From the IMG/VR virus record IMGVR_UViG_3300046820_001270, positions 1 to 64,000 of that record: DNA of 64,000 nt. One strand, written 5' to 3'. Shown in pieces: positions 33,631-64,000 of the stretch. The translations under genes and the position numbers were made by a program. This stretch comes from a virus (Duplodnaviria; Caudoviricetes). The notes under the pieces are model-generated. The model had not been told where the DNA came from, made no database searches, and was given only the letters and a program-made list of their open reading frames with translations. The stretch's first letter is position 1. Every line of letters begins with the position of its first letter.

Positions 33631-34362
33631 ATGATTACTAATCAAGACTTCATAACAAATAATATAACGACCAATTTAGGTGAACCTGTTCCATATAAAT
33701 GGACACACGGGGCAACAACCAAACATATGGGTGATGGACTTATTGTATATTCAATAGTGCAACATATGAGGGCAAAAAATTGTCTTTGTATTGGTTCAGG
33801 TGGTGGTTATATACCCCGTATTATGACACAAGCAAGAATTGATTTACACAAGCAACAAATTTTTGAGGGAAATAGTGATTTAAATTGGGGAGATATTGGA
33901 ACGACCTATCTGGTTGACGCTTGCAATGGGGTAGGAGGACCTAACGACTTACAGGATGAGAATTCACACTTCCGTTATACTTTTCACCCCAGATTGATTA
34001 AATCAACGTCAGAAGAGGCGTATTATAATTTCTTTGTTTTACAGGATATTAAATTAGATTTTATCTTTATTGACGGAGATCATTCATATGAAGGAGTTAA
34101 AAAAGATTTTGAATTATATTCACAATTATTAACGGATAAAGGAATTATAATTATACACGATACAGATTCAGATTATGAGGAAAAACTCATAGTTTCTGAG
34201 GATGCAAAAAAAGATCACCATAGATTTGATGGACCATCTAAGTTTATTGAAGAATTAGAAAAAAACCCATCATATAATTTGATTAATTTATTTAATTTTG
34301 GTATATTACCTAATAAACCGTCATCTAGCGGTATTACGGTAATTAATAAGAAAAATGGTTAG
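33631..34362 (+). CDS. Class I SAM-dependent methyltransferase (Methyltransf_24-like, probable O-methyltransferase)
   Basis: LCIGSGGG, DFIFIDGDHSYEGVKKDF, IIIIHDT. Confidence 0.85.
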   Translation: MITNQDFITNNITTNLGEPVPYKWTHGATTKHMGDGLIVYSIVQHMRAKNCLCIGSGGGYIPRIMTQARIDLHKQQIFEGNSDLNWGDIGTTYLVDACNGVGGPNDLQDENSHFRYTFHPRLIKSTSEEAYYNFFVLQDIKLDFIFIDGDHSYEGVKKDFELYSQLLTDKGIIIIHDTDSDYEEKLIVSEDAKKDHHRFDGPSKFIEELEKNPSYNLINLFNFGILPNKPSSSGITVINKKNG

Positions 34363-35212
34363 ATTATTAACAGTTATTGGTCACGGAGTTAACTTACTTC
34401 CCCATTTCATCAAACATTATGAAAAACATGTAGATGAAATTAACATTGCCGTTTACGAGACTGAATTATATCCTAATTTAACTAAAGAGATTAATGAAGT
34501 AATAAAAAATTATGAAAAAGTTAAGGTTGTAATAACAATACAAGAAAGAGTATTTGATTGGGAAAAGGTAACACACTTATATAATTTTATCAAATCAAAA
34601 CAAAAAGATAGTTGGTATGTTATTGCAGATATTGATGAATTTCATTTATATCCAAATGATGATTTACATAAATTAATATATGACTGTCAAGAAAATAATT
34701 GGGACATTGTTAGAGGTGGATTTATTGATAGAATTGGTAGAGGAGGTGAGTTTAGTGAGTTAGTTAATGATATATCAATATGGGAACAATTCCCAAATGC
34801 GGGATTTTTTAGATATCCTATGAGTCAAGCGTGTCCAAATAAGATTTGTGTGATGAAAGGTTATGTTGACGTAACATCAGGACAACATTATGCTAAAATA
34901 GATGATCACACAACATGGAGGTGGCAAGGATGGGATCACCCGTTGATTGCACCAATTGAGACCCATTCAGTCCAAGTACATCATTTTAAATGGGATTCAA
35001 CATCAATTGAAAGAGTGTTAAATGTTGCAAACATTGACGAAGACTATGCATTTTCAAATGAGTATTTTAAAATGTATAAAGAACTTAAAAAAACAAACTT
35101 TAAAATAGATTTATTAAAGTCTGAATATATGTTTGAATTAGGATTAATTAATCCTGAATTTAATGATTATAAAAATTGGAATAAATTAATTAAAAAAATT
35201 GTTTCAATATAA
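34355..35212 (+). CDS. GT-A fold glycosyltransferase (GT2-like)
   Basis: LPHFIKHY, WYVIADIDEF (DxD), NKICVMK, VHHFKW. Confidence 0.7.
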   Translation: MVRLLTVIGHGVNLLPHFIKHYEKHVDEINIAVYETELYPNLTKEINEVIKNYEKVKVVITIQERVFDWEKVTHLYNFIKSKQKDSWYVIADIDEFHLYPNDDLHKLIYDCQENNWDIVRGGFIDRIGRGGEFSELVNDISIWEQFPNAGFFRYPMSQACPNKICVMKGYVDVTSGQHYAKIDDHTTWRWQGWDHPLIAPIETHSVQVHHFKWDSTSIERVLNVANIDEDYAFSNEYFKMYKELKKTNFKIDLLKSEYMFELGLINPEFNDYKNWNKLIKKIVSI

Positions 35213-36660
35213 TGAAATTAGCAATAATAGTACCGTATAGAGATAGACGTAGTAATTTAGATATATTCATACCACACATGGAAGAATTTTTATCTAACAA
35301 ACAAATAGATTATAAGATTTTTGTTTCAGAACAATCCGACGACAGACCATTTAATTATGGTAAAATTTGTAATGCTATATTTAATGAAATAAAAGATGAC
35401 TACGATTATTTTTGTTTTCATGATGTTGATATGTTACCAATAAACGACGATGCTGATTATTCGTATAAAGAAGAACCAACTCATTTAGTTTTTGAAGATG
35501 AAGATGAAAATGTAATATTACCGTACAATCAATATTTCGGCGGAGTAGTAATATTCAAAAAAGAAGATTTCATCAAAATAAATGGATTTGCAAATGATTA
35601 TTGGGGTAAAGGATATGTTGATTTAGATTTATTATTTAGATGTCAAAAAAACAATTTACCAATAATCAAAAATTATAATTACAGTGTTAAGAATAGTATA
35701 AAACAAGATCTTAAACACCGAAATATAAGTAAAAGATTATCTAAAGTTGAGTTATATGAAAATTCAATAATTGTTAATATGGATTCTAATATAATTGCAA
35801 AAGATTTTACGTTAAGCTTTTACTACACACAAAAACCATTTGTTACAAGTAAAGTTGTTTTATTCAGAACATTAGACACGGTAACAAATGCGGAAAAACA
35901 TAGCCATTTATTTGTTAGTAATAATGATCTACAAATTTTTACCGTAAATGGACAGTTAATTATTCAATTTATGAATAATAATAGTCTATTCCAAATTGAT
36001 ATTAATAGTAATATTGATTTAACCGCACTAAACCACTTTACATTTGTACATAATAGTAAAACAAAAGAATTTACGTTTTACTTAAATGGAATTGAACATA
36101 CAAGTAAAAAATATGACATAGATTACCAATTTTCAAATAAAAATGTTATTATTGGTAATATCGATAATAAAAATATTTTAGAATTATATGATTTAAAATT
36201 ATTTACCACTTCTTTAACAATAAATGAAATTATTAAAAATTATTACTACGGCATTGATTCAAATTGTTTAGATTTTAATCAATTATGTGTTTATCAAGAT
36301 ATTGACGTGTTATTAGATAAACAAATGAATATATGGAAATTAATGGCTAGAACAACGGTTACTAAAGAAAATCAAATTTTAGGTGAAACTAAGATTAATG
36401 ATAAATTAATTCATCAGTTTGGAAAAATAAAATATACACCAATTAAAATGAACGGTAGATATAAATTATTAAATAAAAAATATGAAGAAATTGAAGAAAC
36501 ACATCATCCGGATATTTTGGAAAACAAAAGAACATATTACGAGGACTTATTAAGTGGTAGAATAAAAATTGATAAATTCGGACTTAAGAGTGTAAAATAC
36601 AAATTACTAAATAGGGTGGATTTTAATGAAAACACTGAATGGTTAAAAGTTAGTTTATGA
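35212..36660 (+). CDS. GT7 (beta-1,4-galactosyltransferase-like) glycosyltransferase with lectin-like insert, divergent active site
   Basis: IIVPYRDR, PFNYGKICN, FHDVDMLP, YFGGV, NGFANDYWGKGYVDLD; fold resumes at GRYKLL...GLKSVKYK. Confidence 0.8.
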   Translation: MKLAIIVPYRDRRSNLDIFIPHMEEFLSNKQIDYKIFVSEQSDDRPFNYGKICNAIFNEIKDDYDYFCFHDVDMLPINDDADYSYKEEPTHLVFEDEDENVILPYNQYFGGVVIFKKEDFIKINGFANDYWGKGYVDLDLLFRCQKNNLPIIKNYNYSVKNSIKQDLKHRNISKRLSKVELYENSIIVNMDSNIIAKDFTLSFYYTQKPFVTSKVVLFRTLDTVTNAEKHSHLFVSNNDLQIFTVNGQLIIQFMNNNSLFQIDINSNIDLTALNHFTFVHNSKTKEFTFYLNGIEHTSKKYDIDYQFSNKNVIIGNIDNKNILELYDLKLFTTSLTINEIIKNYYYGIDSNCLDFNQLCVYQDIDVLLDKQMNIWKLMARTTVTKENQILGETKINDKLIHQFGKIKYTPIKMNGRYKLLNKKYEEIEETHHPDILENKRTYYEDLLSGRIKIDKFGLKSVKYKLLNRVDFNENTEWLKVSL

Positions 36661-37070
36661 TAAAGGAGTTATTACAAAATGAGATGTTTGTTCAAAAATT
36701 GGAAACAATTGCTGAAGAAATTAATTTAATAAAAGAAAATAAAGGTGATTTTAGTTTTTTTGTCCCCAAATTTATTATAAACATGGAAGGATTATTAAAA
36801 ATGTTCCATCCTAATGGATCAAATACATTTGATTACGCATCTAAATTTGAATCAACAAAAGAAGAGAAGATAAGATTACAGGAGGAAAAAAAACAACATT
36901 ACGAAACAATTGCAAGTGCGATGGAATTATATAAAAGAATTGAAGTAATTGATGCTAACATATCATATATTGAAAATGATATATCTGATTCAGAATGGAA
37001 AGTATGGAAGGAAGGTCATGAAGGTATCGCGTTTGATAAAGTAAAAAAATATTTAAATAAAAACAATTAA
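36657..37070 (+). CDS. Hypothetical helical protein
   Basis: 137 aa, ATGA-coupled to the upstream gene. Confidence 0.7.
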   Translation: MIKELLQNEMFVQKLETIAEEINLIKENKGDFSFFVPKFIINMEGLLKMFHPNGSNTFDYASKFESTKEEKIRLQEEKKQHYETIASAMELYKRIEVIDANISYIENDISDSEWKVWKEGHEGIAFDKVKKYLNKNN

Positions 37071-37071
37071 A

Positions 37072-37311
37072 ATGGAAAATAAGAAAGAATTAACAACAGA
37101 AGAAAGAGGAGTACAAGCATTAGAGAGTATTGCAAATTCTGCAAGAGACATAAGTGATTGGGTTTATTCTTTAAATACGGAATCGTGGTCTGAAAGACTT
37201 GAGTGGTATTTAAATGAATTTTACTTATTAGCAAAGGCTAAAACAATCGGATCATCAAATAGACCAACAAAAGAATATGAAGAAGAAACTGGCGATAGTA
37301 GTCCCTTATAG
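37072..37311 (+). CDS. Small hypothetical protein
   Basis: 79 aa, overlaps the next start. Confidence 0.65.
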   Translation: MENKKELTTEERGVQALESIANSARDISDWVYSLNTESWSERLEWYLNEFYLLAKAKTIGSSNRPTKEYEEETGDSSPL

Positions 37312-38527
37312 AGATAGACCAACACATTTAAAAACTTTTGTATCTCATATGAAATCTTATTTAAAAGAATATGATTATGAGATTATAGTTGTTGAACAAT
37401 TTAACAATAAACCATTTAATAGAGGTAAATTGTTAAATGTTGGTGCAAAATATGCAAATGACAACGGATTTGATTATTTATGTTTTCATGATGTTGATAT
37501 GTTACCAATTAAGGTAGATTACTCATATCCTGAACACCCAACTAGTTTAATATCTGAATTAGAAAATAAGGATGGTAATATTTTCTTCTCATATTTTGGA
37601 GGTATTACTTTATTTAAGGTAGAGGATTTTTTTGATATAAATGGATACTCAAACAATTATTGGGGGTGGGGGTTTGAAGACACCGACCTTTTTTACAGAG
37701 TAACACATGGAGGACTATTCTTTGATACTGAAACTATCGGTGAAGATAATTATTCATTTATAGGATCAATCAGTTTAAAGGAATTAGATTACATTAAAAT
37801 ACCAATTACATCTTCATTTATCAATAATGATTTTGAAATAAAATTAACGGCTAAAATAGAATCGAAATATCTTGACGAGAATAAAGAATATGACGAGTTT
37901 CCAATTCTATCAATACCTGGTTATAACATAGGTTTATTTTATAATTCATTTAATAGGTATTTTATTCAGATATACGATCAAAATAAAAAACCATATTCAA
38001 TAACGAGTGACATATTAGACGATATTACATCAATTTTTAAATTTATTAAAGTAGGAAATAAAGTTTCTTTTCATATTAATGAAAAACTAATAGGTGAAAT
38101 TGAAATGGATAAACCAATTTTAGATTTAAACAATAAATTTATGTATGTTGGTTCATTTTCAGAAAAGGAAAATATTGAATTTGACATGGATTTAATCGAT
38201 TTAAATATTAATGGATATTCATTAGGTACTAACGATTTTGAGATGTTTGGAGGAATAATAAATGAAGAAAAAGTAATACCACATAAAACATCTTTACCAA
38301 AACCAGTTAGAAGAGAAGGGTTATTTAGAGAATTATATCATGATACTAACGCATCTATAAATAAATCTTGGGTACACCAAGAAACAAGAAAGAATCAAAT
38401 TTATTATAACAATTTTGTAAAACAAAATTTAATTGATTTTACAAAAGAGGGATTGAACTCATTAAATTATAATTTGATATCGGAAAGTGATAATTTAGAT
38501 TATAAAATTTTATCAGTAGAAATATGA
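37277..38527 (+). CDS. GT7 glycosyltransferase with lectin-like insert
   Basis: IVVPYRDR, FNRGKLLNVG, FHDVDMLP, YFGG, NGYSNNYWGWGFEDTD; after the insert EGLFRELYH...EGLNSLNY. Confidence 0.85.
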   Translation: MKKKLAIVVPYRDRPTHLKTFVSHMKSYLKEYDYEIIVVEQFNNKPFNRGKLLNVGAKYANDNGFDYLCFHDVDMLPIKVDYSYPEHPTSLISELENKDGNIFFSYFGGITLFKVEDFFDINGYSNNYWGWGFEDTDLFYRVTHGGLFFDTETIGEDNYSFIGSISLKELDYIKIPITSSFINNDFEIKLTAKIESKYLDENKEYDEFPILSIPGYNIGLFYNSFNRYFIQIYDQNKKPYSITSDILDDITSIFKFIKVGNKVSFHINEKLIGEIEMDKPILDLNNKFMYVGSFSEKENIEFDMDLIDLNINGYSLGTNDFEMFGGIINEEKVIPHKTSLPKPVRREGLFRELYHDTNASINKSWVHQETRKNQIYYNNFVKQNLIDFTKEGLNSLNYNLISESDNLDYKILSVEI

Positions 38528-39936
38528 GTCATAAGTTAGGTATTTGTATACCATATAGAAACAGAGAAGAACATTTAAAAAAATTAATTCCACATTTATC
38601 TAAACACCTAAATGACCAAGAAATTGAACATAAGTTCTATGTTGGACACCAAGTTGATGATAAGTTATTTAATAGAGGCGCAATGAAAAATATTGCGGCA
38701 AAATATGCATTTGACGATGGTTGCGATTATGTGGCTTGGCACGATGTTGATATGTTACCTAAATTAGACGCTGATTATTCTTATCCAACCGAAAACCCAT
38801 TACATATTGCAACTAAGTTATCTAAATATAACTACACTTTAGGGTATGATCAGTATTTCGGAGGAGTTATTTTATTTACCAAAGAACAAGTTGAAAAGAC
38901 CAATGGTTATTCAAACGACTATTGGGATTGGGGTATGGAGGACGATGATTTATTTTGGAGATGTTATTTTGAGGGAATGACGACAGGTAAAATATTTAAA
39001 AACTACACAGATAAATCATTTGGATATTTCGATGGAACATCTTCACATGTTGAAATTGCAAATAGAACTGCCGCAGAATGTTTAAATAAAAATCATACAA
39101 TTTCCGTGTTAGTTAGTGCAGAACAACAAACAAACAAAGTACCCATATTTTTAATTGGAGATGAAGAAAAACAATTTATTGAGTACCCAATTTTAACTAA
39201 AAGTGGTGGTTATAGTTATATGTTATCTTTCAATAATTCAAGGGCATATACAATGAGGTTATTTAACGATGCACGTACACAAATATACAATTGGATCAAA
39301 AGATTTGAAAACATGTGGACTTGGATAACCATATCAGTTAATACCGATACTAAGGAAATTTATTTTTATCTAAATGACGAATTGGTAAGAAATATCAATG
39401 ACGTTAAAGAAAAACTACCTGTTTCAATTACTGGAAATGGATTATTAAGGTACGATATGAGAAACCCATTTTATTTAGGGTTTGATAAACAAACAAATAA
39501 TAGATTTAAAGGTAAAATTTCGGAGATTAAAGTTTATAACAAGTACTTTACCCCTGAAGAAATATCTACCGTTCTTGAGAAGAAAACTACCGAAGGATTG
39601 GTATTTGAGTACGATTTCACAAACAATGATAATATAGTTTTAAATAATGTTAAAATAGAGAAAGAAAACATCAACATTATTGAAAATATCATACCATATA
39701 GAAAAGAAGGTAGTTTTGAATGTTTAGAACATATAGATGAGGGATTTAAGAACGGAACATGGGCTAAAGGTGAAACCACCGCAAGAAATGAAAAGAGATT
39801 TATCATGGAAATGCAACAAAATAAGATTAATTACAAATCGGAAGGTTATAATGAAGTTTTAGATATTATGGAAATTGTTAATATAAATGAAACTGATTAT
39901 CATAACACAGTATTTATTAATGTTAATATGAAATAA
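38524..39936 (+). CDS. GT7 glycosyltransferase with LamG-like insert
   Basis: ICIPYRNR, FNRGAMKN, WHDVDMLP, YFGGV, NGYSNDYWDWGMEDDD; insert has FDG...WTWITI...FYLN...IKVYN; resumes EGSFECLEH. Confidence 0.85.
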   Translation: MSHKLGICIPYRNREEHLKKLIPHLSKHLNDQEIEHKFYVGHQVDDKLFNRGAMKNIAAKYAFDDGCDYVAWHDVDMLPKLDADYSYPTENPLHIATKLSKYNYTLGYDQYFGGVILFTKEQVEKTNGYSNDYWDWGMEDDDLFWRCYFEGMTTGKIFKNYTDKSFGYFDGTSSHVEIANRTAAECLNKNHTISVLVSAEQQTNKVPIFLIGDEEKQFIEYPILTKSGGYSYMLSFNNSRAYTMRLFNDARTQIYNWIKRFENMWTWITISVNTDTKEIYFYLNDELVRNINDVKEKLPVSITGNGLLRYDMRNPFYLGFDKQTNNRFKGKISEIKVYNKYFTPEEISTVLEKKTTEGLVFEYDFTNNDNIVLNNVKIEKENINIIENIIPYRKEGSFECLEHIDEGFKNGTWAKGETTARNEKRFIMEMQQNKINYKSEGYNEVLDIMEIVNINETDYHNTVFINVNMK

Positions 39937-39992: not shown

Positions 39993-41375
39993 ATGGATTA
40001 CTTAGAAGAAGTCAAACATAATTTAGACGGGGTGGGTTGCGGTTTTTGTTTAGCGAAATGGACACAAGTTACTATGCATTTACATAATGGATTTACCCAT
40101 TCTTGTCACCATCCGAGTCCACATAAAATACCTTTAGAGGAGTTAGAAACAAACCCAACCGCATTACATAACACATCATTTAAGAAGAAGATTCGAGAAG
40201 AAATGTTATTAGGTAAAAAACCTAGCGAGTGTAATTATTGTTGGAATATTGAAAAGAATTCAGAATCATATTCTGATAGAGTTTTTAAAAGTTCAGAAGA
40301 GTGGTCATTAAAACATTTTAAAGAGATTAAGGAATTACCTTGGGACGCTAACTATAACCCAAAATACGTCGAAGTTAGTTTTTCAAATACATGTAATTTC
40401 AAATGTTCATATTGTGGACCTACGTTTTCATCTCGATGGGTGGAAGAATCCGAACAACATGGAGGTTACCCAACATCAAATAATTTTAATAATTTAGATT
40501 GGCTTAAAAATACAAATCAGATCCCTTACAAACAAACTGAAGATAATCCATATTTGGAGGCATTTTGGAAATGGTGGCCTGTATTATATACAACTTTAGA
40601 CACATTTAGAATAACAGGAGGAGAACCTTTATTATCAAAAGACACATGGGGTATTTTAGAATATATTGCAACAACTGAAAATCCAAACAGAGATTTAAAT
40701 ATATCAATCAATTCTAATTTAGGAGTACCAAAAAACTTGATAGAAAAAATGGTAGATCTATGTGAAAAAATAATTAACGAAGGAAGAGTTAAGACTTTAA
40801 TAATTTTTACATCTTGTGAATCATATGGTGAACAGGCAGAGTACGGTAGACATGGATTAAATTATAGTAATTTTATTGAAAATGTTGAATATATATTACA
40901 AAGATTACCAAAGGTTACTATTAACATTATGGCAGCCTTTAACGTATTTTCTCCATTTGGTTATACTAAATTAGTTGACGAAGTCTTCCAATTAAAAAAG
41001 AAGTACCATAATAATGAGAGATATTGGGTTTCCGCAATTCAGTTAGATACGTCGTATATTAGATCCCCATCATTCTTATCTGTTAAAATATTAGAAGATG
41101 ATCATAAGAAATTAATTTTGGAAAGTGCAAAGAAGAGTTTTTATTATGCTATGCCTGAATTTACAAATGAATATTATGGTTTTTCAAATACCGAAGTTCA
41201 AAAAATAAAAAGATTGTATGATTATGCAATTGGTAACGATTATTTATATGACGTTGAACAAAATAGAGTTGATTTTGTAAACTTTGTCGATGAACATGAT
41301 AAAAGAAGAGGAACAAACTTTTTACAAACATTTCCTGAATTAGAAAATTTATATAACAATGTTAAAAATAGATAA
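39993..41375 (+). CDS. Radical SAM protein with N-terminal twitch/SPASM-like Cys motif
   Basis: FCLAKW..SCHH..CNYCW, then CNFKCSYC, ITGGEP, D.RRGTNF..TFPEL. Confidence 0.9.
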   Translation: MDYLEEVKHNLDGVGCGFCLAKWTQVTMHLHNGFTHSCHHPSPHKIPLEELETNPTALHNTSFKKKIREEMLLGKKPSECNYCWNIEKNSESYSDRVFKSSEEWSLKHFKEIKELPWDANYNPKYVEVSFSNTCNFKCSYCGPTFSSRWVEESEQHGGYPTSNNFNNLDWLKNTNQIPYKQTEDNPYLEAFWKWWPVLYTTLDTFRITGGEPLLSKDTWGILEYIATTENPNRDLNISINSNLGVPKNLIEKMVDLCEKIINEGRVKTLIIFTSCESYGEQAEYGRHGLNYSNFIENVEYILQRLPKVTINIMAAFNVFSPFGYTKLVDEVFQLKKKYHNNERYWVSAIQLDTSYIRSPSFLSVKILEDDHKKLILESAKKSFYYAMPEFTNEYYGFSNTEVQKIKRLYDYAIGNDYLYDVEQNRVDFVNFVDEHDKRRGTNFLQTFPELENLYNNVKNR

Positions 41376-41943
41376 GGGACAACCATGGGTTATGTGGCCA
41401 GATAATTTGGTTAGTAATTTCATTGAAAACCCATCCAATAAAATATTTGATCACGACGGGGATTTTAATTTCACAATGAAATTTGAATTACCTGAACCGA
41501 TTAAAGAAAAGAAAACGTTAATTGCAAAATTACCAAGTTATTTCGGTCTTGATATTGTACCCGATGGTTGTCTCTTAATTTACAGATATAAATCGGCAAT
41601 TGAAACATTTCATTTATTTGAGGAATGTACTTGGGATATGAACATTATATATACATTAGTTATTGAGAAAATTGGTGATAAATTAACCATAAAAATAGAT
41701 GATAAAGTATCGTTTAATCTTGATTTAATTTTTAGATTGGGTTATGATGATAATTCACATATTATTTTTGGAGCAGGTAATTTTCCTAAAAATGGATTTA
41801 ATTTAAATTATTTACCGGTTAATTTACACTACCTATCAATAACTAAGGATAACGAATTAATATCAGAACATAATTTTGAGACTTTTATATACGATAAAAG
41901 TTTTGACTTAACTGATAATTGTAATTTTATACATAAAATTTAA
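41359..41943 (+). CDS. Hypothetical protein, possibly a stand-alone beta-sandwich (LamG-like)
   Basis: FNFTMKF...YTLVIEK...LTIKID...HIIFGAG pattern is similar to the GT7 inserts; weak. Confidence 0.5.
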   Translation: MLKIDKGQPWVMWPDNLVSNFIENPSNKIFDHDGDFNFTMKFELPEPIKEKKTLIAKLPSYFGLDIVPDGCLLIYRYKSAIETFHLFEECTWDMNIIYTLVIEKIGDKLTIKIDDKVSFNLDLIFRLGYDDNSHIIFGAGNFPKNGFNLNYLPVNLHYLSITKDNELISEHNFETFIYDKSFDLTDNCNFIHKI

Positions 41944-41946
41944 AAT

Positions 41947-44756: not shown

Positions 44757-44759
44757 AAT

Positions 44760-47992: not shown

Positions 47993-48031
47993 AATTTTAT
48001 TTATTCATTATTTTTAATTATATTAGTTTAA

Positions 48032-50000: not shown

Positions 50001-50012
50001 AAAAATAATATT

Positions 50013-54576: not shown

Positions 54577-54578
54577 CA

Positions 54579-57837: not shown

Positions 57838-57866
57838 TTGACAATTTGAGGTATTTTTAGTATATT
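57838..57866 (+). promoter_or_regulatory. sigma70-type promoter TTGACA-N17-TATATT
   Basis: TTGACA 57838-57843, 17-nt spacer, TATATT 57861-57866; ATG at 57875. Confidence 0.65.
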
Positions 57867-57874
57867 ATATCATT

Positions 57875-58312: not shown

Positions 58313-58316
58313 TAAT

Positions 58317-58682
58317 ATGAGTAAGAAATATGCAATGTATGTTGGCAGATGGCAGAATTGGCACAAGGGCCACGAATGGTTAATTAACCAACAGTTAGAA
58401 AAGGGTAAGGATATTTGGGTTGCAATTAGAAATGTTCCGACAGATGAAAATAATCCTAAAACGGCCCAAGAAGTAATGATGGAATTAGCTGGTGAACCAT
58501 ATTTTATGGAAAATTCACATAGAATTAATATATCCATTATTCCAGATATTGAAAGTATCAATTATGGTAGAGGGGTTGGTTATGACGTTATTTATCACGA
58601 ACCACCACCTGAAGTTGAAGTAATAAGTGGAACTAAAATCCGTAATGGAGAAATGACAACTGACGGTAAAGTTAAAGGATAA
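58317..58682 (+). CDS. HxGH nucleotidyltransferase (cytidylyltransferase-like)
   Basis: YVGRWQNWHKGH, YGRGVGY, ISGTKIR. Confidence 0.75.
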   Translation: MSKKYAMYVGRWQNWHKGHEWLINQQLEKGKDIWVAIRNVPTDENNPKTAQEVMMELAGEPYFMENSHRINISIIPDIESINYGRGVGYDVIYHEPPPEVEVISGTKIRNGEMTTDGKVKG

Positions 58683-59197
58683 TGATACACCAAAGAGTTT
58701 TATTTACCAAAGACGAATGTGATTACCTTATAAATTACAGAAATAATGGTGTTTACCGAAATAACGGAGGGTATGTAAACCATGTTGATATAAATTATAA
58801 ACAGTGGTCAATTTTCAGAAATAGTGATTTAGAATTTTTGTTTGATAGAATTATATCTTTTGCTGAAATATCCTTTGATGTAAAAATAGAAAATTTTAAA
58901 GAGGAAAGTTGGATCTATCAGTGGGAAGTGAATGACGGTTATGGAATGCATAGGGATAATGTTAAAAATAGGAAATTCATAATAGGTGTACAATTGAATG
59001 ACGATTATGTTGGAGGGGATTTAATGGTTGATTATGGTAATCAAATATTAATTGCGGATAAAACAATTGGTAATTGTTATACTTTTGAATCCGCAATGTT
59101 ACACGGAGTTTCACCTATAATATCGGGTAATAGATTTAATATGTTAACTTTTTTTCCAACGTATAATATAAAACAGAATAAAGTTAGTTTAATATGA
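58682..59197 (+). CDS. 2OG-Fe(II) oxygenase
   Basis: GMHRD, QLNDDYVGGDL, LHGVSPI..G.RF; ends VSLI. Confidence 0.85.
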   Translation: MIHQRVLFTKDECDYLINYRNNGVYRNNGGYVNHVDINYKQWSIFRNSDLEFLFDRIISFAEISFDVKIENFKEESWIYQWEVNDGYGMHRDNVKNRKFIIGVQLNDDYVGGDLMVDYGNQILIADKTIGNCYTFESAMLHGVSPIISGNRFNMLTFFPTYNIKQNKVSLI

Positions 59198-59403
59198 TAG
59201 TAGAAAGAAAAAGACACATAGTTAAAACAATATCGTATCGTGTTATTAGTACTTTAATAGGGTTTGTTATAATGTGGTGGGTAAGTGGATCAATTAAAGT
59301 TGGTGCGGCATTTGGTGTGGCGGAATTGATATATAAACCCATACAATATTACATTCACGAAAGAATATGGTATAAGTGGATAAAATATGGATTAAAAAAA
59401 TAA
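59194..59403 (+). CDS. DUF2061-like membrane protein
   Basis: RHIVKTISYR...YYIHERIW. Confidence 0.8.
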   Translation: MIVERKRHIVKTISYRVISTLIGFVIMWWVSGSIKVGAAFGVAELIYKPIQYYIHERIWYKWIKYGLKK

Positions 59404-59439
59404 AAAAAGAAAAAACAATAATCTAATATATAATAAGTT

Positions 59440-60003
59440 ATGATTGGTAATATAGACATATTTGAAAAATTCCTATCACCCGAAGAATGCGACCTTATTT
59501 TAAATAAATGTAAAGGAGAATTAACATTATCAAAGGCGAAAGTATACGGGGATAATTCTAACGATACTCATACTAAAACAATTAGAAAATCATCAATCGG
59601 GTGGATATCTGATTTAGGATTTTTAAATGAAAGATTAACAAATATATTAAAAAAAACATTCACAATAAACGGTATGGAAGTTACTGGATTAGGTAATTAT
59701 CAATTTACTGAATACAAAGAAGACGAATATTTTGATTGGCATACTGATAGTACGGACACTATATATAGAGATAGATTTACATCAATAGTAATTCAATTAA
59801 ACGATACATATCAAGGTGGAATATTGGAAATAAAAAATATTAAAGGAGAACTAGTACCAATAGAAAATAAAATAGGAACGTTATATATTTTTAATTCAAG
59901 ATTATCACATAGAGTAACACCTGTGGTAGATGGTATTAGATACTCATTAGTAAATTGGGTATCATTAGTTAAAACCGATTCAAAAAAACAAAATCTTTTA
60001 TAA
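59440..60003 (+). CDS. 2OG-Fe(II) oxygenase (prolyl-4-hydroxylase-like)
   Basis: FDWHTD, QLNDTYQGGIL, SHRVTPVVDGIRYSLVNW; ends QNLL. Confidence 0.9.
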   Translation: MIGNIDIFEKFLSPEECDLILNKCKGELTLSKAKVYGDNSNDTHTKTIRKSSIGWISDLGFLNERLTNILKKTFTINGMEVTGLGNYQFTEYKEDEYFDWHTDSTDTIYRDRFTSIVIQLNDTYQGGILEIKNIKGELVPIENKIGTLYIFNSRLSHRVTPVVDGIRYSLVNWVSLVKTDSKKQNLL

Positions 60004-60023
60004 TAATAAAAAAACAAAAACAA

Positions 60024-60233
60024 ATGAAAATTTTTAATTTAGGTGATGCCTCACCATCAGGTAGAATGACATTCCTTTCAATAGGGGTGGTGGTATTTAT
60101 AGCCAATTGTTTAGCTGGTTTTGATAACATTAGTTGGGTACATTGGCTACCTCCGGTTCTTTTACCTTTGGCCGCTTTAACTGGAATTTGTCCTTTTAAG
60201 ATCGTATGGGAAAAATTAGGATTTAGAAAATAA
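60024..60233 (+). CDS. DUF2892/YgaP-like membrane protein
   Basis: Two TM segments and AALTGICPF...KLG. Confidence 0.7.
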   Translation: MKIFNLGDASPSGRMTFLSIGVVVFIANCLAGFDNISWVHWLPPVLLPLAALTGICPFKIVWEKLGFRK

Positions 60234-60242
60234 AAAAATAAA

Positions 60243-60578
60243 ATGAAATTTATATTAACATTTGCAATTGCTATTATAATTTTATATTCTATTATTGGTT
60301 GGAAACGAATATTTGATAGATATAAAATGTTTATGAATAAAACTTATTGGACAGATTATAATACAATTGAGTTTGCTGCTTGGTTTGCTAAGGCGATCAT
60401 CATAATACCTGGATTAGTATTCGGAATTGAAATATGGTATCTACATTTCCTAACACTACTTACGTCTTCATTATTGATTTGGGCATCAATGAAAAAGGAT
60501 TTACCTACATTAATTGCTTTTAATACGATATGGATTTGTTTATCATTAACGATATTAATAAGACATTTAATACCATAA
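60243..60578 (+). CDS. Membrane protein
   Basis: 111 aa, about four hydrophobic segments. Confidence 0.75.
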   Translation: MKFILTFAIAIIILYSIIGWKRIFDRYKMFMNKTYWTDYNTIEFAAWFAKAIIIIPGLVFGIEIWYLHFLTLLTSSLLIWASMKKDLPTLIAFNTIWICLSLTILIRHLIP

Positions 60579-60579
60579 T

Positions 60580-61821
60580 ATGAAAGTTACAATTATAGGT
60601 GGAGGAACTGCCGGTTGGTTATCGGGTTTATATTTTAATTCTCAGGGATATGAAGATATTACAATTATAGATAGTTCCAAAGTTGGAATATTAGGTGCGG
60701 GAGAGGCATCTACACCAAATTTAAATGGATTATTATTAAATTTAGGAATTGATAAGATTGATTTTTTAAAAACAACCGGAGCAACCATAAAGGTATCGAA
60801 TGATTTTATAAATTGGTCTCCCTTCGGAGGTAAATACGAAAACCCATTCGGTCACCCCAATAGATTAAAAGAAGAAAATGATAATACATATGGTTATCAT
60901 TTTGATGCGAGAGAATGTGCTAAGTATTTTAAAAATATAGGAATTAATAGAGGAATAAAACATTTAGATGTTAATATTACACATTTTACTCAAAATGAAA
61001 ACGGAGATATTACCAATATTCATACCGAAGAAAAAATAAACATTGAAACAGAATTTGTTATCGATTGTAGTGGTTTTGGTAGATTATGTATCGGTAAATT
61101 ATATAATAGTAAATGGAAATCGTATTCGGAATATTTGAAGGCTAACTGTGCAATTGCATATTTTCTACCACAGGATAGAGTATTGACAGAAAATTCTAAA
61201 ACACATACCCAATCCATTGCTATGAAAAACGGATGGATGTGGCAAGCACCACTACAACATAGATGGGGATGTGGATATGTGTTTAATGATACTTACATTA
61301 CAAATGAAGAGGCTAAAAAAGAAGTTGAAGATTACTTGGGTAGAGAAATTGAAATTGTTAAAACTTTCAAATTTGATGCTGGTGGGTATGAAGAAACATG
61401 GATTAATAATTGTGTTGCACTTGGGTTATCTAGCGGATTTTTAGAACCATTAGAAGGAACATCGTTAATGTCCGTTATATGGTCTTTAAATAAATTAAGT
61501 GATATTAGGTTAGAAAATTGTAATTTTGAAAATAGAAAATTATATAATGAATATGTTAATAATGTAAATTATCAATCTATGTTGTTTGTTAGACATCATT
61601 ATAATTGTGGTCGAACTGATACTAAATTTTGGAGAGATATAAATAATACTAAATTACCATCAGATTTAATTAAAATACTTAGAAGTTTAGAAAAGAATAT
61701 TGAAGACGATTCATTGATTTATATTACAAGTAAAAAAGATGGATTACCAATATTTGGTAAAAATCATTATCAAATAGTTGATTTGGGTCATAAATCAAAA
61801 ACAATAAAAACATTTTTATAA
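60580..61821 (+). CDS. Flavin-dependent halogenase (tryptophan halogenase family)
   Basis: IIGGGTAGW, GAGEAS, GATIK, FVIDCSGF, WMWQAP, GFLEPLEGT; ends KTFL. Confidence 0.88.
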   Translation: MKVTIIGGGTAGWLSGLYFNSQGYEDITIIDSSKVGILGAGEASTPNLNGLLLNLGIDKIDFLKTTGATIKVSNDFINWSPFGGKYENPFGHPNRLKEENDNTYGYHFDARECAKYFKNIGINRGIKHLDVNITHFTQNENGDITNIHTEEKINIETEFVIDCSGFGRLCIGKLYNSKWKSYSEYLKANCAIAYFLPQDRVLTENSKTHTQSIAMKNGWMWQAPLQHRWGCGYVFNDTYITNEEAKKEVEDYLGREIEIVKTFKFDAGGYEETWINNCVALGLSSGFLEPLEGTSLMSVIWSLNKLSDIRLENCNFENRKLYNEYVNNVNYQSMLFVRHHYNCGRTDTKFWRDINNTKLPSDLIKILRSLEKNIEDDSLIYITSKKDGLPIFGKNHYQIVDLGHKSKTIKTFL

Positions 61822-61822
61822 G

Positions 61823-62332
61823 ATGAATCATATATTAGTTGATAATTTTTTTAACGACCCCCATTCAATCAGAAAACTTGCATTGTCTATGGAATATGTT
61901 AAATCATCTAAAAAAACAGGATGGAAAGGATATAGAGTCATTATAAATAATGATGATATAAAAAAATATATTAAATATAAATTAATTGAAATAGATAAAA
62001 AATTTGAAAATTTATTGATAGATGAAATTTTTTTTCATTATATTTTAGAGGAAAATAGAAATGATTTAAAAAAAAGATTACACAAAGACACAACAGATTT
62101 TGCTGGAGTTATTTACCTCACACCAAACCCACCTAAAAATTCAGGAACAACCTTACATAACGATAATACCAATTTGGAGAACGTAATTGATAATGTATAT
62201 AATAGATTTATTTTCTATGACGGAAAAAAATTACACGGCCCACAAGATACTTTTGGTAATAGTATTGAAAATGGTAGATTAACATTAACCATGTTTGCAA
62301 ATATTAGTAAGAATAAAAAAACAATAATATAA
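61823..62332 (+). CDS. 2OG-Fe(II) oxygenase-like protein
   Basis: VDNFFNDP, LHKD, AGVIYLTP, SGTT, NVYNRFIFY, LHG, RLT; ends KTII. Confidence 0.75.
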   Translation: MNHILVDNFFNDPHSIRKLALSMEYVKSSKKTGWKGYRVIINNDDIKKYIKYKLIEIDKKFENLLIDEIFFHYILEENRNDLKKRLHKDTTDFAGVIYLTPNPPKNSGTTLHNDNTNLENVIDNVYNRFIFYDGKKLHGPQDTFGNSIENGRLTLTMFANISKNKKTII

Positions 62333-62334
62333 TT

Positions 62335-62937
62335 ATGATTGAAGAAATAAAATTAAATGATAATACTAATATCTATAAATCAAAAATAAAAATTACCGAT
62401 AAAAATAAATTGATATCGGATATAAAACTTAATTTAGATATTTCCATAAATTCAAAAAATTCAACCCCCACCGAACCTGGTATCCAATCAACTATTGTAA
62501 TATCAACACCTTCCATACGAGAATTAAATGAAAAAATAATAGATGTATTATTTAAAAATTCTAAGATAGATATAAATACACCATATATCACAAATCAATG
62601 GGTTTATATTAGTGATAAGAAGAATACATATTATGGATTTCATTCCCACGATAAGAAAAATCACACAAACATACCGTTACAATGGACATATACTTATTAT
62701 GTCCAAATGCCAAATAATTTAGTTGGGGATGATGGTAAATTAGTTTTTAAATTAGATAATGATACTACACATTCCATATTGCCTGAAGTTGGTGATTTAC
62801 TTATATTTCCCACAACATTATTACATGCACCAATGACTAATACTAATTCGGAAATAGAAAGAATTGTATTTGCTGGAGTTTGGAGTTATATTGACACAAC
62901 AATTCAAATTAGAAAAAAAAATAAAACATTATTATAA
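62335..62937 (+). CDS. 2OG-Fe(II) oxygenase-like protein
   Basis: HSHD, YTYYVQMP, GKLVF, PEVGDLLIFP..LLHAP, RIVFAG; ends KTLL. Confidence 0.75.
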   Translation: MIEEIKLNDNTNIYKSKIKITDKNKLISDIKLNLDISINSKNSTPTEPGIQSTIVISTPSIRELNEKIIDVLFKNSKIDINTPYITNQWVYISDKKNTYYGFHSHDKKNHTNIPLQWTYTYYVQMPNNLVGDDGKLVFKLDNDTTHSILPEVGDLLIFPTTLLHAPMTNTNSEIERIVFAGVWSYIDTTIQIRKKNKTLL

Positions 62938-62938
62938 T

Positions 62939-63226
62939 ATGTTAAATTTTAAAGAAATATTTACATCTTGGGCGAAACTTTCAAATCCAACAGAACAAGA
63001 GGAACGATTAGCTAAAATTAGATTTTCAATATGTGAAGGTTGTCAATATAAGAAAGAGATTATTAAGACAAAGAAGTGGTCGTTATTATGTGGAAAATGT
63101 GGATGTCCTATACGGGCAAAAGTTTTTTCAGATCAGATTAATCCGTGTCCTATGGGATATTGGAAAGATATCGATAAAAATTTTGGATTAGATATTGATG
63201 AAAAGAATAAAAAATCAATAATTTAA
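62939..63226 (+). CDS. Small Cys-rich metal-binding protein
   Basis: ATG at 62939 preferred; R..ICEGC...CGKCGCPIRAK...CPMGYW; ends KSII. Confidence 0.75.
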   Translation: MLNFKEIFTSWAKLSNPTEQEERLAKIRFSICEGCQYKKEIIKTKKWSLLCGKCGCPIRAKVFSDQINPCPMGYWKDIDKNFGLDIDEKNKKSII

Positions 63227-63255
63227 TATATACATATATATAAGTATATTTCAAA

Positions 63256-63292
63256 TTAAATATATAATTTAAATATTAAATTATATATTTAA
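63256..63292. repeat. Perfect 17-bp inverted repeat with a 3-nt spacer, all A/T
   Basis: TTAAATATATAATTTAA-ATA-TTAAATTATATATTTAA. Confidence 0.85.
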
Positions 63293-63315
63293 GAGAACAA
63301 TTACTAAAAATAAAC

Positions 63316-63322
63316 TATTTAT
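63316..63322 (+). promoter_or_regulatory. TATTTAT motif (putative late promoter)
   Basis: AACTATTTATC, 26 nt before the ATG at 63349. Confidence 0.5.
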
Positions 63323-63348
63323 CAAATAACATAAATAATATAAAGAAT

Positions 63349-64000
63349 ATGAAAGGTACAATTATTGGGACGGACTTATTAGAATTTAACAATTCGGTAA
63401 AAATTTTAGAAATAAACACAAATACAACTATCTTCAACAGTGCAGTTGATTTGTTAGATTATACATTATTTTTTGAAATGTTAGTTAATAATAATATTAA
63501 CGAATTACATTTTATTTATAATGAGTCGGATGCGTATATAAATGATACCGATACAATGCTTTTTTTATTTGAAGAAAGATTAAAAACAAAATGTATTGAG
63601 AATGGTATCACATATTTTGATTACAAAGTACCAGCTAATTCTGTAACTGTACCGTTTATTGAAGATGCTAATAATAAATTTATTTTAAGACAGGCATTTG
63701 ATACGACTGCGTTGGTAGATGAAACATATTGTGCAGATAAATTTGAATTTTTTAATTTAATGAAAGATTCACAATATATTCCAAAAACATATATAAATAA
63801 TGGTACTGAATTATCTTTTGACACCTTTAATACTATAAGTAATTATACAAACGGTAGACCAAATTTAGTTAAAAAAGATAGATACCCAAGTTATGATTTT
63901 CATTTATATCCTGCTTTATCTAAATTAACTACCGATGTACAATTATCTCAATTAAAAACATCAGTAGATAATACCACGTTTTTGATACAAGAATTTATTT
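63349..64000 (+). CDS. ATP-grasp-like protein, circularly permuted type (3' truncated, not in ORF track)
   Basis: Hand translation is open to the window end: MKGTIIGTDLLE...KILEINTN...DKFEFF..M...IPKTY...PNLVKK...LIQEFI. Confidence 0.6.
   Translation, partial: MKGTIIGTDLLEFNNSVKILEINTNTTIFNSAVDLLDYTLFFEMLVNNNINELHFIYNESDAYINDTDTMLFLFEERLKTKCIENGITYFDYKVPANSVTVPFIEDANNKFILRQAFDTTALVDETYCADKFEFFNLMKDSQYIPKTYINNGTELSFDTFNTISNYTNGRPNLVKKDRYPSYDFHLYPALSKLTTDVQLSQLKTSVDNTTFLIQEFI

Follow-up and report, generated by a model that had tools for sequence, protein, structure and literature searches.

The enzyme-rich stretch at 33631-64000 of the window (the whole 64,000 nt of DNA that was analysed, from the 334 kb genome of an uncultured freshwater phage) is pieced together from at least three glycan modules, each inherited independently, and is not one unit. 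The best explanation places it within the hypervariable 'host recognition' region of a large freshwater phage of T4-like type, as the part that is rich in enzymes. Taken as a whole, the modules would make and tailor a glycan for which the phage's own fibre and receptor-binding proteins act as acceptors, a reading to which we give a probability of roughly 45%. That the product is a glycan, synthesised and tailored in the cytoplasm, is highly probable; the virion fibres are its most likely, if tentative, target. The first-pass annotation, which proposed a single ~30 kb tailoring system for a decorated glycan coat, was largely right in what it saw and is confirmed in part.

Layout of the locus

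The region contains 38 ORFs, 34 of them at least 100 aa in length, all on the + strand (as is every feature given below) and with a coding share of 98%, in agreement with the earlier count of about 40 tightly packed genes. From position 25238 onward, 29 of 43 junctions overlap or lie at most 5 nt apart. Between the fibre gene at 25238 and position 57484 no intergenic gap exceeds 56 nt, and the first gap of more than 100 nt (148 nt) follows 57484, directly 3' of the carbamoyltransferase gene. A transmembrane scan placed membrane segments in only three small proteins and in no enzyme, so that every enzyme looks cytoplasmic. Family-model searches of the window gave no matches for a flippase, polymerase or priming transferase, and neither a sulfotransferase nor a sulfurylase was found in it; the absence of a recognised flippase, polymerase or sulfotransferase had been remarked before. 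A search of RNA runs returned no run containing the sequence.

Fibre and lectin-type genes upstream

The Ser/Thr-rich fibre and lectin genes described upstream of the island are real. Four large fibre proteins (11229..24918) have Pfam Collagen (E 2e-44 to 2e-86) and PHROG tail-fibre matches. Three of the four carry long collagen-type G-[TS]-[SND] repeats (G-X-Y, with T or S at X and S, N or D at Y), for which a triplet census gives 33-36% Ser+Thr, 1-2% Pro and ~1% Lys, and one (21973-24918) has Pro/Thr-rich linkers. They are followed by a protein resembling a long-tail-fibre distal subunit (25238..28594; PHROG 'long tail fiber protein distal subunit' matches) with a C-terminal S74 intramolecular chaperone (Pfam Peptidase_S74, E 1.5e-12), homologues of which were located in 34 related loci, ~9 kb 5' of the GT7 cassette. 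The next five proteins (28594..33595) are lectin-type, with a common N-terminus of ~50 aa (48-64% identity across residues 1-50 in pairwise BLAST) and differing heads, LamG/ConA-like in three of the five (Laminin_G_3, E 1e-11 to 3e-20). With PHROG matches to virion structural proteins, they probably serve as alternative fibre tips or receptor binders.

GT7 enzymes with a lectin-like insert and N-terminal-twitch radical SAM enzymes

Module 1 (33.6-47.3 kb) comprises a methyltransferase, a GT92-like protein, a small helical protein, GT7 enzymes and radical SAM enzymes, and the synteny of its GT7 cassette is kept in 64-70 of 80 viral loci. The conserved cassette begins at 33631..35212 with a class I SAM methyltransferase (33631; Pfam Methyltransf_24), bearing out the proposed methyl chemistry, and a GT-A-like protein of GT92/GT2_4 type (34355), which scores below the Pfam cut-off and for which an Atlas feature search gave GT92 clusters, as a lead only; homologues of the two occur in 65/80 and 67/80 GT7 loci, respectively.

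Three GT7 (beta4GalT-like) paralogues occupy 35212..39936 (starts 35212, 37277 and 38524), each matching GT7N, GT7C and Laminin_G_3 in Pfam. The AF2 model (pLDDT 92) finds beta4GalT7 and beta4GalT1 as its best Foldseek matches, at 35-40% identity over the catalytic core, and phmmer against the PDB finds beta4GalT7 at E 1e-27. The motifs of these animal enzymes, HDVD (DxD), WGWGxED (WGxGxED), the loop His and the GLNSL-Y tail, are kept in two of the three phage copies; in the first copy the catalytic motifs have diverged, and one copy is without the Glu and the loop His. Unlike the animal enzymes, the phage proteins have no signal anchor and carry a LamG/pentraxin-like insert of 200-250 aa within the GT7 fold, just before the acceptor-site flexible loop and its His. 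The inserts show no close relationship to the LamG heads of the fibre-tip proteins encoded nearby (best E 0.009), and tblastn found no match to the GT7-LamG protein among 50,697 GenBank phage records. Between the GT7 copies lie a 137-aa ORF and a 79-aa helical protein (37072-37311), the latter kept in 64/80 loci. Of six GT-like genes counted previously, the three GT7 genes are thus secure and the others weaker, one being the below-cut-off GT2_4/GT92-like gene and two of DUF7796/capsule type.

Five N-terminal-twitch radical SAM paralogues (starts 39993, 41947, 43515, 44760 and 46103) and a conserved 194-aa partner (41359-41943), whose homologue follows the first radical SAM gene in 64 loci, fill 39993..47332, and a sixth radical SAM gene lies at 51648. 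All six match NF033640 (E 1e-64 to 1e-100; 219-335 bits, cut-off 170), confirming the radical chemistry. They are deeply diverged, at ~20% mutual identity, with four N-terminal Cys and a CxxxCxxC motif invariant. No characterised member of NF033640 (N_Twi_rSAM) was found, and a fold search gave no close solved relative, the nearest structures being SkfB, viperin, BlsE, anSME and MoaA at only E 1e-5 to 1e-3. Cellular N_Twi radical SAM arrays, in Bdellovibrionota, adjoin GT2 transferases and carbamoyltransferases.

The RuBisCO-like cassette and the carbamoyltransferase

Module 2 (48.0-50.0 kb and 53.5-55.8 kb) contains a nucleotidyltransferase, a cupin, a RuBisCO-like enolase-type enzyme, a GDPD-like protein and DUF7796 transferase-like proteins, and module 3 (50.0-57.5 kb) a radical SAM enzyme, SGNH-like DUF6071 proteins and a carbamoyltransferase. 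Members of both are found in a mixed block at 47339..53538 (Pfam, profile versus PDB and Atlas), in which a GDPD-like protein (143 aa; profile versus PDB, GDPD E 5e-5) and two DUF7796-like proteins (Pfam DUF7796; Atlas 'capsular polysaccharide biosynthesis') are displaced members of the RuBisCO-like cassette. The DUF6071/SGNH-like proteins at 50013, 50885 and 52789 flank the sixth radical SAM enzyme (Pfam Radical_SAM). The SGNH assignment made earlier is a weak call, with Pfam DUF6071 matches at 50013 and 52789 and no more than an N-terminal GDS motif at 47339 and 50885.

The core of the RuBisCO-like cassette (53522..55802) is a trio of genes that overlap or lie at most 2 nt apart, encoding a sugar-phosphate nucleotidyltransferase (53522; NCBIfam RmlA-like, E 4e-8, below cut-off, which makes the claimed sugar activation a weak call), a metal cupin (profile versus PDB, E 3e-7) and a RuBisCO-like protein (54579; RuBisCO_large, E 9e-33). 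The cassette is present in at least 121 viral contigs (IMG/VR loci), with synteny kept in 76-77/80 loci. Phage form IV-like RuBisCO-like proteins were described as a divergent clade that comes from many environments and is carried by Myoviridae-type contigs ~200 kb or longer, with function and gene context left open (Jaffe et al. 2019, PMC6389311), whereas here the protein belongs to a fixed cassette of nucleotidyltransferase, cupin, RuBisCO-like, GDPD-like and DUF7796 proteins. The adjoining NodU/CmcH/TobZ-type carbamoyltransferase (55817..57484) has both Pfam domains (E 1e-59 and 1e-65), which confirms the proposed carbamoyl chemistry, and matches in 148 GenBank phage records; the order of radical SAM, DUF6071 and carbamoyltransferase genes recurs in Ralstonia phage RsoM2USA.

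In other phages the RuBisCO-like cassette adjoins gp32 and helicase genes, not fibres, and T4-like phages glycosylate their DNA with unusual pentoses by means of nucleotidyltransferase/isomerase cassettes (PMC13326640, PMC6024577). Both points favour DNA hypermodification, in which an unusual activated sugar, for example from this cassette, would be placed on modified bases to evade restriction. We nevertheless judge this the least probable of the explanations weighed here, since neither a base hydroxymethylase nor a dNMP kinase nor a DNA-binding enzyme is encoded in the window and the GT7 cassette goes with fibre genes rather than with those of replication. Phage DNA glycosyltransferases of the BshA, PimA and sucrose-phosphate-synthase types are presumably GT-B enzymes. 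It was these bacterial and archaeal types, and not GT7, that phage DNA glycosyltransferases matched (PMC13326640), which also speaks against DNA as the target.

Kinase pair, oxygenases and halogenase

The last 6.5 kb (the kinase/nucleotidyltransferase pair, 2OG oxygenases and halogenase) may consist of unrelated accessory genes. The segment 57633..58682 encodes a 67-aa ORF, a truncated APS-kinase-like P-loop kinase (145 aa; Pfam APS_kinase, E 5e-18; PDB matches cover residues 3-102 only) and an HxGH nucleotidyltransferase (121 aa; NMNAT-like, E 6e-6), the latter two possibly a PAPS-like activated-donor pair. Of the suggested sulfate-donor chemistry, only the truncated kinase-like protein was recovered, with no sulfurylase or sulfotransferase. 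Nod factors are decorated by NodU, NodS and NodPQ; the island is similar in its carbamoyl, methyl and possibly PAPS-like-donor tailoring of a putative glycan but has neither a NodPQ equivalent (no sulfurylase) nor a sulfotransferase. Downstream, 58682..63226 encodes three 2OG-Fe(II) oxygenases (58682, 59440 and 62335, by Pfam), a DUF6445 protein (61823), three small membrane proteins, a flavin-dependent halogenase (60580; Trp-halogenase family, Pfam E 3e-86) and a Cys-rich protein (120 aa), so the hydroxylation and halogenation previously proposed both hold. Most of these proteins end in a K-K/T-x-[LI]-[LI] tail, a tag that is confined to genes from 47.3 kb onward. A putative ligase ORF starting at 63349 has no Pfam match.

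The mix of radical SAM enzymes, TobZ-family carbamoyltransferase, halogenase, methyltransferase, GTs and 2OG enzymes resembles antibiotic gene clusters, the radical SAM fold matches include BlsE and DesII (nucleoside or NDP-sugar substrates), and a cyanomyovirus paper took similar genes for 'antibiotic synthesis genes' (PMC12801897). A diffusible aminoglycoside- or nucleoside-like glycoside (halogenated, carbamoylated, methylated) is still a very unlikely product: a tandem set of two or three GT7 enzymes, each with a lectin-like insert, better suits a polymer or a protein as acceptor, no enzyme that could form a scaffold (PKS, NRPS or cyclitol synthase) and no exporter was seen, and the fibre-gene synteny would be left unexplained.

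Separate inheritance of the modules

Related T4-like phages inherit each of the three modules separately. GT7 and N_Twi radical SAM genes co-occur in 13/13 records versus 1/23, and none of 36 related records, all at least 100 kb long, combines the GT7/radical-SAM cassette with the RuBisCO-like one, which does not bear out a single tailoring system. In relatives the GT7 cassette runs on into RmlC-like, NAD epimerase/dehydratase and TPP enzymes, that is, NDP-deoxysugar synthesis. Records bearing either cassette have Gp23 matches and no NCLDV capsid and, judged by these matches, are T4-like. Giant viruses glycosylate their own fibrils with their own enzymes; the records here are, by contrast, T4-like phages and not NCLDV.

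If the 30 kb were a hyperplastic accessory region in which unrelated modules (the glycan cassette, the RuBisCO-like cassette, the halogenase/2OG set and an ATP-grasp gene) had accumulated, each with its own target, then 'one tailoring island' would be an artefact of adjacency. This fits the absence of any record with both cassettes, the split and rearranged RuBisCO-like cassette compared with its canonical order, the gap at 57484 that sets off the last module, the confined C-terminal tag, and halogenase and 2OG genes that are generic accessory genes of cyano- and pelagimyophages. We consider it distinctly unlikely, however, that no pathway is shared, as most modules still indicate carbohydrate chemistry, and radical SAM, DUF6071 and carbamoyltransferase genes travel together in an unrelated cultured jumbo phage and in Bdellovibrionota, which hints that modules 1 and 3, at the least, are functionally coupled.

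Fibre proteins or host envelope as possible acceptor

The virion reading builds on the observed enzyme families, synteny, modularity and absence of membrane or export components. Soluble enzymes in the cytoplasm of the infected cell would build a short glycan, with module 2 making and delivering an unusual activated sugar or sugar phosphate, and the lectin-like insert would help the GT7 enzymes to keep hold of an acceptor that is repetitive or already bears sugars. The glycan would next be methylated, carbamoylated, (de)acylated and radically modified, a tailoring that module 3 would serve, and the acceptors would most likely be fibre and receptor-binding proteins of the phage itself, which are rich in Ser/Thr and whose genes lie just upstream in the same uninterrupted array. 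Of the earlier glycan-decoration proposal, some parts stand: family matches support glycan synthesis and tailoring machinery as the bulk of 33.6-57.5 kb, and this runs on from the fibre gene with no gap of more than 56 nt. The single system and a correlation with the repeats do not. The co-occurrence check, which the first-pass annotation had itself named as a way to refute its proposal, went against it: collagen-type repeats occur in 4/13 cassette-bearing versus 10/23 cassette-free records, and they are absent from two complete cassette-bearing genomes. Most phages have Ser/Thr-rich fibre proteins, and such fibres are therefore weak evidence for a virion target. The missing correlation counts against that target, as do the lack of close kinship between LamG inserts and heads, the position of the RuBisCO-like cassette near gp32 and helicase genes in other phages, the failure of the radical SAM fold search to give a close solved relative, and the interpretation of such genes in the literature as host O-chain remodelling (PMC7029224).

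A precedent for the mechanism is the O-glycosylation of mycobacteriophage virions (Freeman et al. 2023, cited in PMC12619734), where GT genes lie among structural genes and phage-encoded soluble GTs act cytoplasmically on virion proteins. As far as the citing account goes, that system involves other hosts and other GT families, its acceptors are the C-termini of the capsid and tail tube, and it has no radical SAM enzyme, lectin-insert GT or carbamoyl tailoring.

The one form in which the literature mentions such islands is the pelagimyophage and cyanomyophage 'host recognition cluster' (Zaragoza-Solas et al. 2020, PMC7029224). This too is a large hypervariable region of aquatic T4-like phages that adjoins their tail-fibre genes and is dense in glycosyltransferase and LPS-type genes, with radical SAM cassettes gained and lost between close relatives. 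The island also shares carbamoyltransferase and halogenase homologues with HTVC008M and cyanophages. That study differs in naming GT8-type and sugar-precursor genes and proposing a change of the host O-chain, and the GT7 with inserted LamG, N-terminal-twitch radical SAM and RuBisCO-like cassettes are undescribed in it.

The standard reading of GT-rich host recognition clusters (PMC7029224) supplies the main rival, which we regard as unlikely: soluble phage enzymes would modify lipid-linked O-antigen, capsule or S-layer precursors at the inner membrane face, and the host would export an altered glycan that changes the cell surface and so prevents either superinfection or the loss of progeny by adsorption to debris of lysed cells. 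DUF7796 relatives are linked weakly to WavE, and their automatic naming as capsular polysaccharide biosynthesis proteins agrees with this, as does the frequency of carbamoyltransferase and similar accessory genes in cyano- and pelagimyophages, and the host could supply the missing export genes. Against it, there is no priming phosphoglycosyltransferase, flippase, polymerase, ligase or membrane-anchored enzyme in the window, and the array is uninterrupted with late-type fibre genes, whereas superinfection exclusion would be expected early. In relatives the GT7 cassette is, moreover, placed preferentially behind fibre genes, and a Ser/Thr-rich ORF of at least 700 aa precedes it in 25/45 loci versus 10/54 control loci.

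Fibre genes and the enzyme block that follows them

The source phage record (334,492 bp) comes from a freshwater metagenome, and every gene called in the window lies on the + strand save one ORF of 212 residues (6906-7544). The fibre block (11229-24918, + strand) encodes four very large proteins with matches to PHROG tail-fibre families, three of which contain long collagen-type repeats (Pfam Collagen, E 2e-44 to 2e-86). A census of the repeat triplets gives the form G-[T/S]-[S/N/D], and Pro and Lys make up only 1-2% and ~1% of the fibre proteins, respectively, so that the 'GTSG repeats' of the first-pass annotation are collagen-like helices without Pro or Lys. A 981-residue protein (21973-24918) is free of G-X-Y repeats and consists of Cys-containing modules joined by many (Thr-Pro)n linkers, with a Lys content of 0.1%; judged from its sequence, this architecture is mucin-like and would also be a natural substrate for O-glycosylation. 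Next comes a protein resembling the distal subunit of long tail fibres, with an S74 intramolecular chaperone (25238-28594, +; Pfam Peptidase_S74 and PHROG matches), and then five consecutive proteins (28594-33595, +) which share an N-terminus of ~50 residues (48-64% identity) and differ in their C-terminal heads, three of the five being LamG/ConA-like. The arrangement looks like a set of interchangeable or alternative fibre tips, or receptor-binding proteins, on one attachment domain.

The enzyme genes begin at 33631, where the G+C content falls from ~36% to 25-31%, and the island (33631-64000) holds 38 ORFs at 98% coding density. Between the start of a fibre gene (25238) and the end of the carbamoyltransferase gene (57484), neighbouring genes are never more than 56 nt apart. 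We judge this dense run of enzyme genes to be genuine rather than a product of chance. Ahead of the fibre block lie two candidate lysis genes, one for a multi-pass membrane protein (3-1532), a homologue of which is also encoded by Ralstonia phage RsoM2USA, and one for an Amidase_2 protein (1794-2396).

GT7 glycosyltransferases carry an inserted LamG domain

Three island genes (35212, 37277 and 38524) match both halves of the GT7 family above the Pfam gathering score (Glyco_transf_7N, 66-79 bits; Glyco_transf_7C, 52-71 bits), and a phmmer search of the PDB with GT7 returned matches at E 1e-27. An AlphaFold model of 38524 (pLDDT 92) matches beta4GalT7 and beta4GalT1, with 35-40% identity over the catalytic core. 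The DxD metal site, the WGxEDD-type catalytic motif (as WGxGxEDD) and the flexible-loop His are kept in 37277 and 38524. The first paralogue (35212-36660) keeps HDVD and has WGKGYVDLD in place of WGxGxEDDD, with loss of the Glu, and a Lys where the loop His would be; it may be inactive or work by an altered mechanism. Between the WGxGxEDD helix and the loop bearing the metal-binding His lies an inserted LamG/pentraxin-like domain, after which the GT7 tail resumes. In a comparison within the window, these inserts showed no close kinship to the LamG domains that form heads of fibre-tip proteins. The GT7-LamG protein forms 1,734 clusters at 90% identity in metagenomes, every one of them unnamed, and has no match among 50,697 GenBank phage records.

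Six radical SAM enzymes of one family

All six radical SAM proteins (39993, 41947, 43515, 44760, 46103 and 51648) belong to the N-terminal-twitch family NF033640, with scores of 219-335 bits against a cut-off of 170 bits. Their mutual identity is only ~20%, but four N-terminal Cys and the CxxxCxxC motif are common to the whole set (invariant residues C8, C27, C80, C83 and C135/C139/C142), and they look like six distinct enzymes rather than recent copies. A fold search gave generic matches only, and we draw no inference from it as to substrate. Cellular relatives of the family occur in tandem arrays (231 ORFs in 80 loci), mostly in metagenome-assembled genomes of Bdellovibrionota, which are predatory bacteria; these loci also contain large GT2 transferases (19/80), carbamoyltransferases (6/80) and further radical SAMs. 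That the island enzymes instead modify ribosomally made peptides (RiPPs) is unlikely, since the cassette contains no Cys-rich or conserved precursor-like peptide, and no conserved position of its conserved small protein is a Ser, Thr or Cys.

Further enzymes of the island

The methyl, carbamoyl, hydroxylation, halogenation and radical chemistries proposed in the first-pass annotation agree with family models (Methyltransf_24, carbamoyltransferase, 2OG oxygenase, halogenase and radical SAM). These models support one Methyltransf_24 protein, two DUF6071 proteins, a RuBisCO-like protein (RLP), a carbamoyltransferase, an APS-kinase-like protein, three 2OG oxygenases, one DUF6445 protein and one enzyme of the tryptophan-halogenase family. 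The RLP (54579) scores 114 bits with Pfam RuBisCO_large, has a form III enzyme and the RLP 3nwr as its best PDB matches, and shows IKPK and KEDE motifs by eye. The carbamoyltransferase (55817-57484) is of the NodU/CmcH/TobZ type (Carbam_trans_N and Carbam_trans_C, 200 and 219 bits). Profile searches identify 54244 as a metal cupin (E 3e-7) and 48032 as a half-length GDPD-like protein (E 5e-5), and 48429 and 49227 are DUF7796/'capsular polysaccharide'-type proteins; single-sequence PDB searches with 48032 and 48429 returned nothing. The 285-residue protein 34355 resembles GT92 and GT2_4 transferases at the level of a lead, and its profile search against the PDB gave no match. For the proposed ligase, placed at the end of the window (63349 onward), Pfam gave no match either.

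In animals and mimivirus, collagen is hydroxylated and glycosylated by P4H or lysyl hydroxylase together with a GT. Hydroxylation of Pro or Lys in this style by the 2OG oxygenases is rejected, as the Y positions of the repeats are Ser, Asn or Asp and there is almost no Pro or Lys.

The 'sulfate donor' proposed earlier corresponds to a truncated APS-kinase-like protein (145 residues, with the match confined to residues 3-102) that directly adjoins a minimal, 121-residue HxGH nucleotidyltransferase of NMNAT-like type (57875-58682). Pfam finds no ATP sulfurylase, no full APS kinase and no sulfotransferase in the island. The pair recalls the two-step logic by which nucleotide-activated donors are made, as in the synthesis of PAPS or of the Campylobacter phosphoramidate, and its donor need not involve sulfate. 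The reported lack of a flippase, polymerase or sulfotransferase is borne out by the Pfam families of the island genes, among which a priming phosphoglycosyltransferase and an ABC exporter, further components of Wzx/Wzy- or ABC-dependent O-antigen and capsule loci, are likewise absent. Membrane segments were found by TM scan only in three small proteins (59194, 60024 and 60243).

The island is a mosaic of modules found in related phages

Scans of IMG/VR recovered relatives of GT7-LamG at no fewer than 195 loci, of the RLP at 121 or more, and close relatives of radical SAM 46103 at 11. The GT7-LamG neighbourhood has a fixed order, namely methyltransferase, GT92-like protein, small helical protein, two or three GT7-LamG proteins, radical SAM and a 244-residue partner related to 41359, each member being found in 64-70 of 80 loci. 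This cassette often runs on into RmlC-like, NAD epimerase/dehydratase and TPP-dependent enzymes, that is, into NDP-deoxysugar synthesis. The RLP neighbourhood is also ordered (nucleotidyltransferase, cupin, RLP, GDPD-like, DUF7796-like; 60-77 of 80 loci), and in the window SGNH-like and radical SAM genes have been inserted into it and break it up. In a third sub-module, common to the window and RsoM2USA, a radical SAM of the 41947 type (53% identical) is joined by DUF6071 proteins and a carbamoyltransferase. RsoM2USA is a cultured Ralstonia jumbo phage (MG752970) with related genes at two loci (L252 and L253, at 123-130 kb and 217-237 kb): its genes 199-203 encode a carbamoyltransferase, two DUF6071 proteins, an NF033640 radical SAM and a further DUF6071 protein, and gene 349, which follows an ORF of over 2500 residues at a distance of ~10 kb, encodes a second NF033640 radical SAM, all annotated as hypothetical. 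Homologues of the halogenase and the carbamoyltransferase are common in cyano- and pelagimyophages (82 and 148 GenBank records, respectively).

The assessment of co-occurrence covered 36 related records, each 100 kb or longer, 13 with GT7-LamG and 23 RLP-bearing records without it. NF033640 radical SAMs are present in 13/13 of the former versus 1/23 of the latter, the exception being a 518-kb phage with 16 copies. The RLP was found in none of the 13 GT7-LamG records, in a search run without a positive control, and GT7-LamG in none of the 23 RLP-bearing records. The 518-kb phage (G022, 518,643 bp; locus L055) is complete and T4-like, and its 16 NF033640 genes stand in several arrays; it also carries the RLP cassette, and is without GT7-LamG. 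The association with GTSG-repeat genes proposed for the island is not seen: collagen-type repeats occur in 4/13 records with the GT7 cassette versus 10/23 without it, and two complete genomes (G002 and G028) carry the cassette with no collagen match.

The Gp23 capsid gene is present in 3/3 GT7-cassette records and 4/5 RLP-bearing records searched. A giant-virus (NCLDV) origin, considered because some contigs bear GVMAG labels and GenBank phages gave no match, is rejected for the records searched; an NCLDV capsid gave no match in three GT7-cassette records, in a search run without a positive control. The window contains no capsid gene, and its T4-like status is therefore taken from its relatives. 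The description that fits best is of several glycan modules brought together in the hypervariable stretch next to the fibre genes of a large T4-like phage. A single decorated-glycan system tied to repeat fibres, as first conceived, is supported only in part.

Product and acceptor

Three lines of evidence point to carbohydrate chemistry: which genes are present, the occurrence of NDP-sugar genes in relatives, and the cellular setting in which the radical SAM family is found. We consider it probable (roughly 0.8) that the island serves glycan synthesis and tailoring. Virion proteins are a tentative choice of acceptor, at slightly under even odds. They are favoured by the continuity of the enzyme array with the fibre genes and by the position of the GT7 cassette in relatives, behind an ORF that is Ser/Thr-rich, 700 residues or longer and often an S74 fibre homologue (25/45 GT7-cassette loci with full flanks versus 10/54 RLP loci). 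The solubility of all the enzymes, with no priming transferase, flippase, polymerase or exporter, points the same way, as does the joining of the GT7 catalytic domain to a lectin-like domain, a pairing which recalls transferases acting on densely glycosylated proteins. Against virion proteins stand the failed co-occurrence with collagen-type repeats, the distance of the LamG inserts from the fibre-tip heads, and the RLP cassette, which adjoins replication genes in other phages. Of a virion-glycosylation system of the mycobacteriophage type, the region shows the genomic predictor, GT genes beside structural genes.

The main rival is remodelling of the host envelope. Aquatic T4-like phages carry a hypervariable 'host recognition cluster', rich in GTs and radical SAMs, beside their tail fibres, and it has been read as a means of modifying the host O-chain (Zaragoza-Solas et al., PMC7029224). 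The present region shows the same features, with fibre distal-subunit PHROG matches, an enzyme region adjoining the fibres, GTs, radical SAM cassettes and modularity. The all-soluble enzyme set without export functions favours the virion as target over the envelope.

A more specific form of virion glycosylation, which we regard as improbable, is that the phage makes proteoglycan-like fibres by a pathway that would be the viral, cytoplasmic equivalent of linker-region biosynthesis in the Golgi. The Gly-Thr-Ser and Gly-Ser-Ser repeats would offer hundreds of Ser-Gly sites, the class of motif at which animals attach glycosaminoglycan. These sites would be O-glycosylated and extended by the beta4GalT7-like enzymes, whose inserted lectin domain would let them travel along an already glycosylated repeat, and the six twitch radical SAMs would then perform carbohydrate radical chemistry, for which we know of no precedent, together with carbamoylation and use of a PAPS-like donor.

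Relation to earlier work

Enzyme-rich clusters beside fibres are already in the literature as a general phenomenon, and 12 radical SAM genes have been noted in one T4-like marine genome (PMC5332604). RuBisCO-like proteins of phages have been reported, with their function left unknown (PMC6389311), and virion glycosylation is established in mycobacteriophages according to Freeman et al. 2023, as cited in PMC12619734. We found no description in the literature of a GT7 family with an inserted LamG domain, of its strict linkage to NF033640 radical SAMs or of the fixed five-gene RLP cassette.

Should the glycan be carried by the fibres, it would be routine for large aquatic phages to coat the receptor-binding apparatus with sugar by means of uncharacterised enzymes, which would bear on host range, protease resistance and recognition by grazers; the enzyme families of the island are abundant in metagenomes. 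Several questions become testable: the role of an animal-type GT7 with an internal lectin in the bacterial cytoplasm, the reactions of the NF033640 enzymes and the reason for their sharing between Bdellovibrionota and phages, and the product of the phage RLP. Cultured RsoM2USA, which bears part of the system, provides an experimental entry point.

Expression signals and a shared C-terminal tail

The T4-type late promoter TATAAATA and the TATTTATA motif are no commoner in the window than in shuffled sequence, and a terminator scan gave chance-level counts. On the + strand, copies of TATTTATA precede the start codons of several fibre genes, and that of the ORF at 57633, by 7-70 nt (positions include 13328, 18652, 25170 and 57613), with a total count equal to chance expectation. 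The sequence occurs in no RNA run.

Nine otherwise unrelated proteins encoded between 47339 and 63226 (two SGNH-like proteins, one DUF7796 protein, the three 2OG oxygenases, the DUF6445 protein, the halogenase and a Cys-rich protein) end in [K/N]-[K/T]-x(0-2)-[L/I/F]-[L/I]-COOH. The motif is absent from the remainder of the window and from homologues of these proteins in other phages, and occurs at 1.4% of ORF ends in related viral loci and at 0.16% of internal positions. It could be a phage-specific tag for docking, sorting or degradation.
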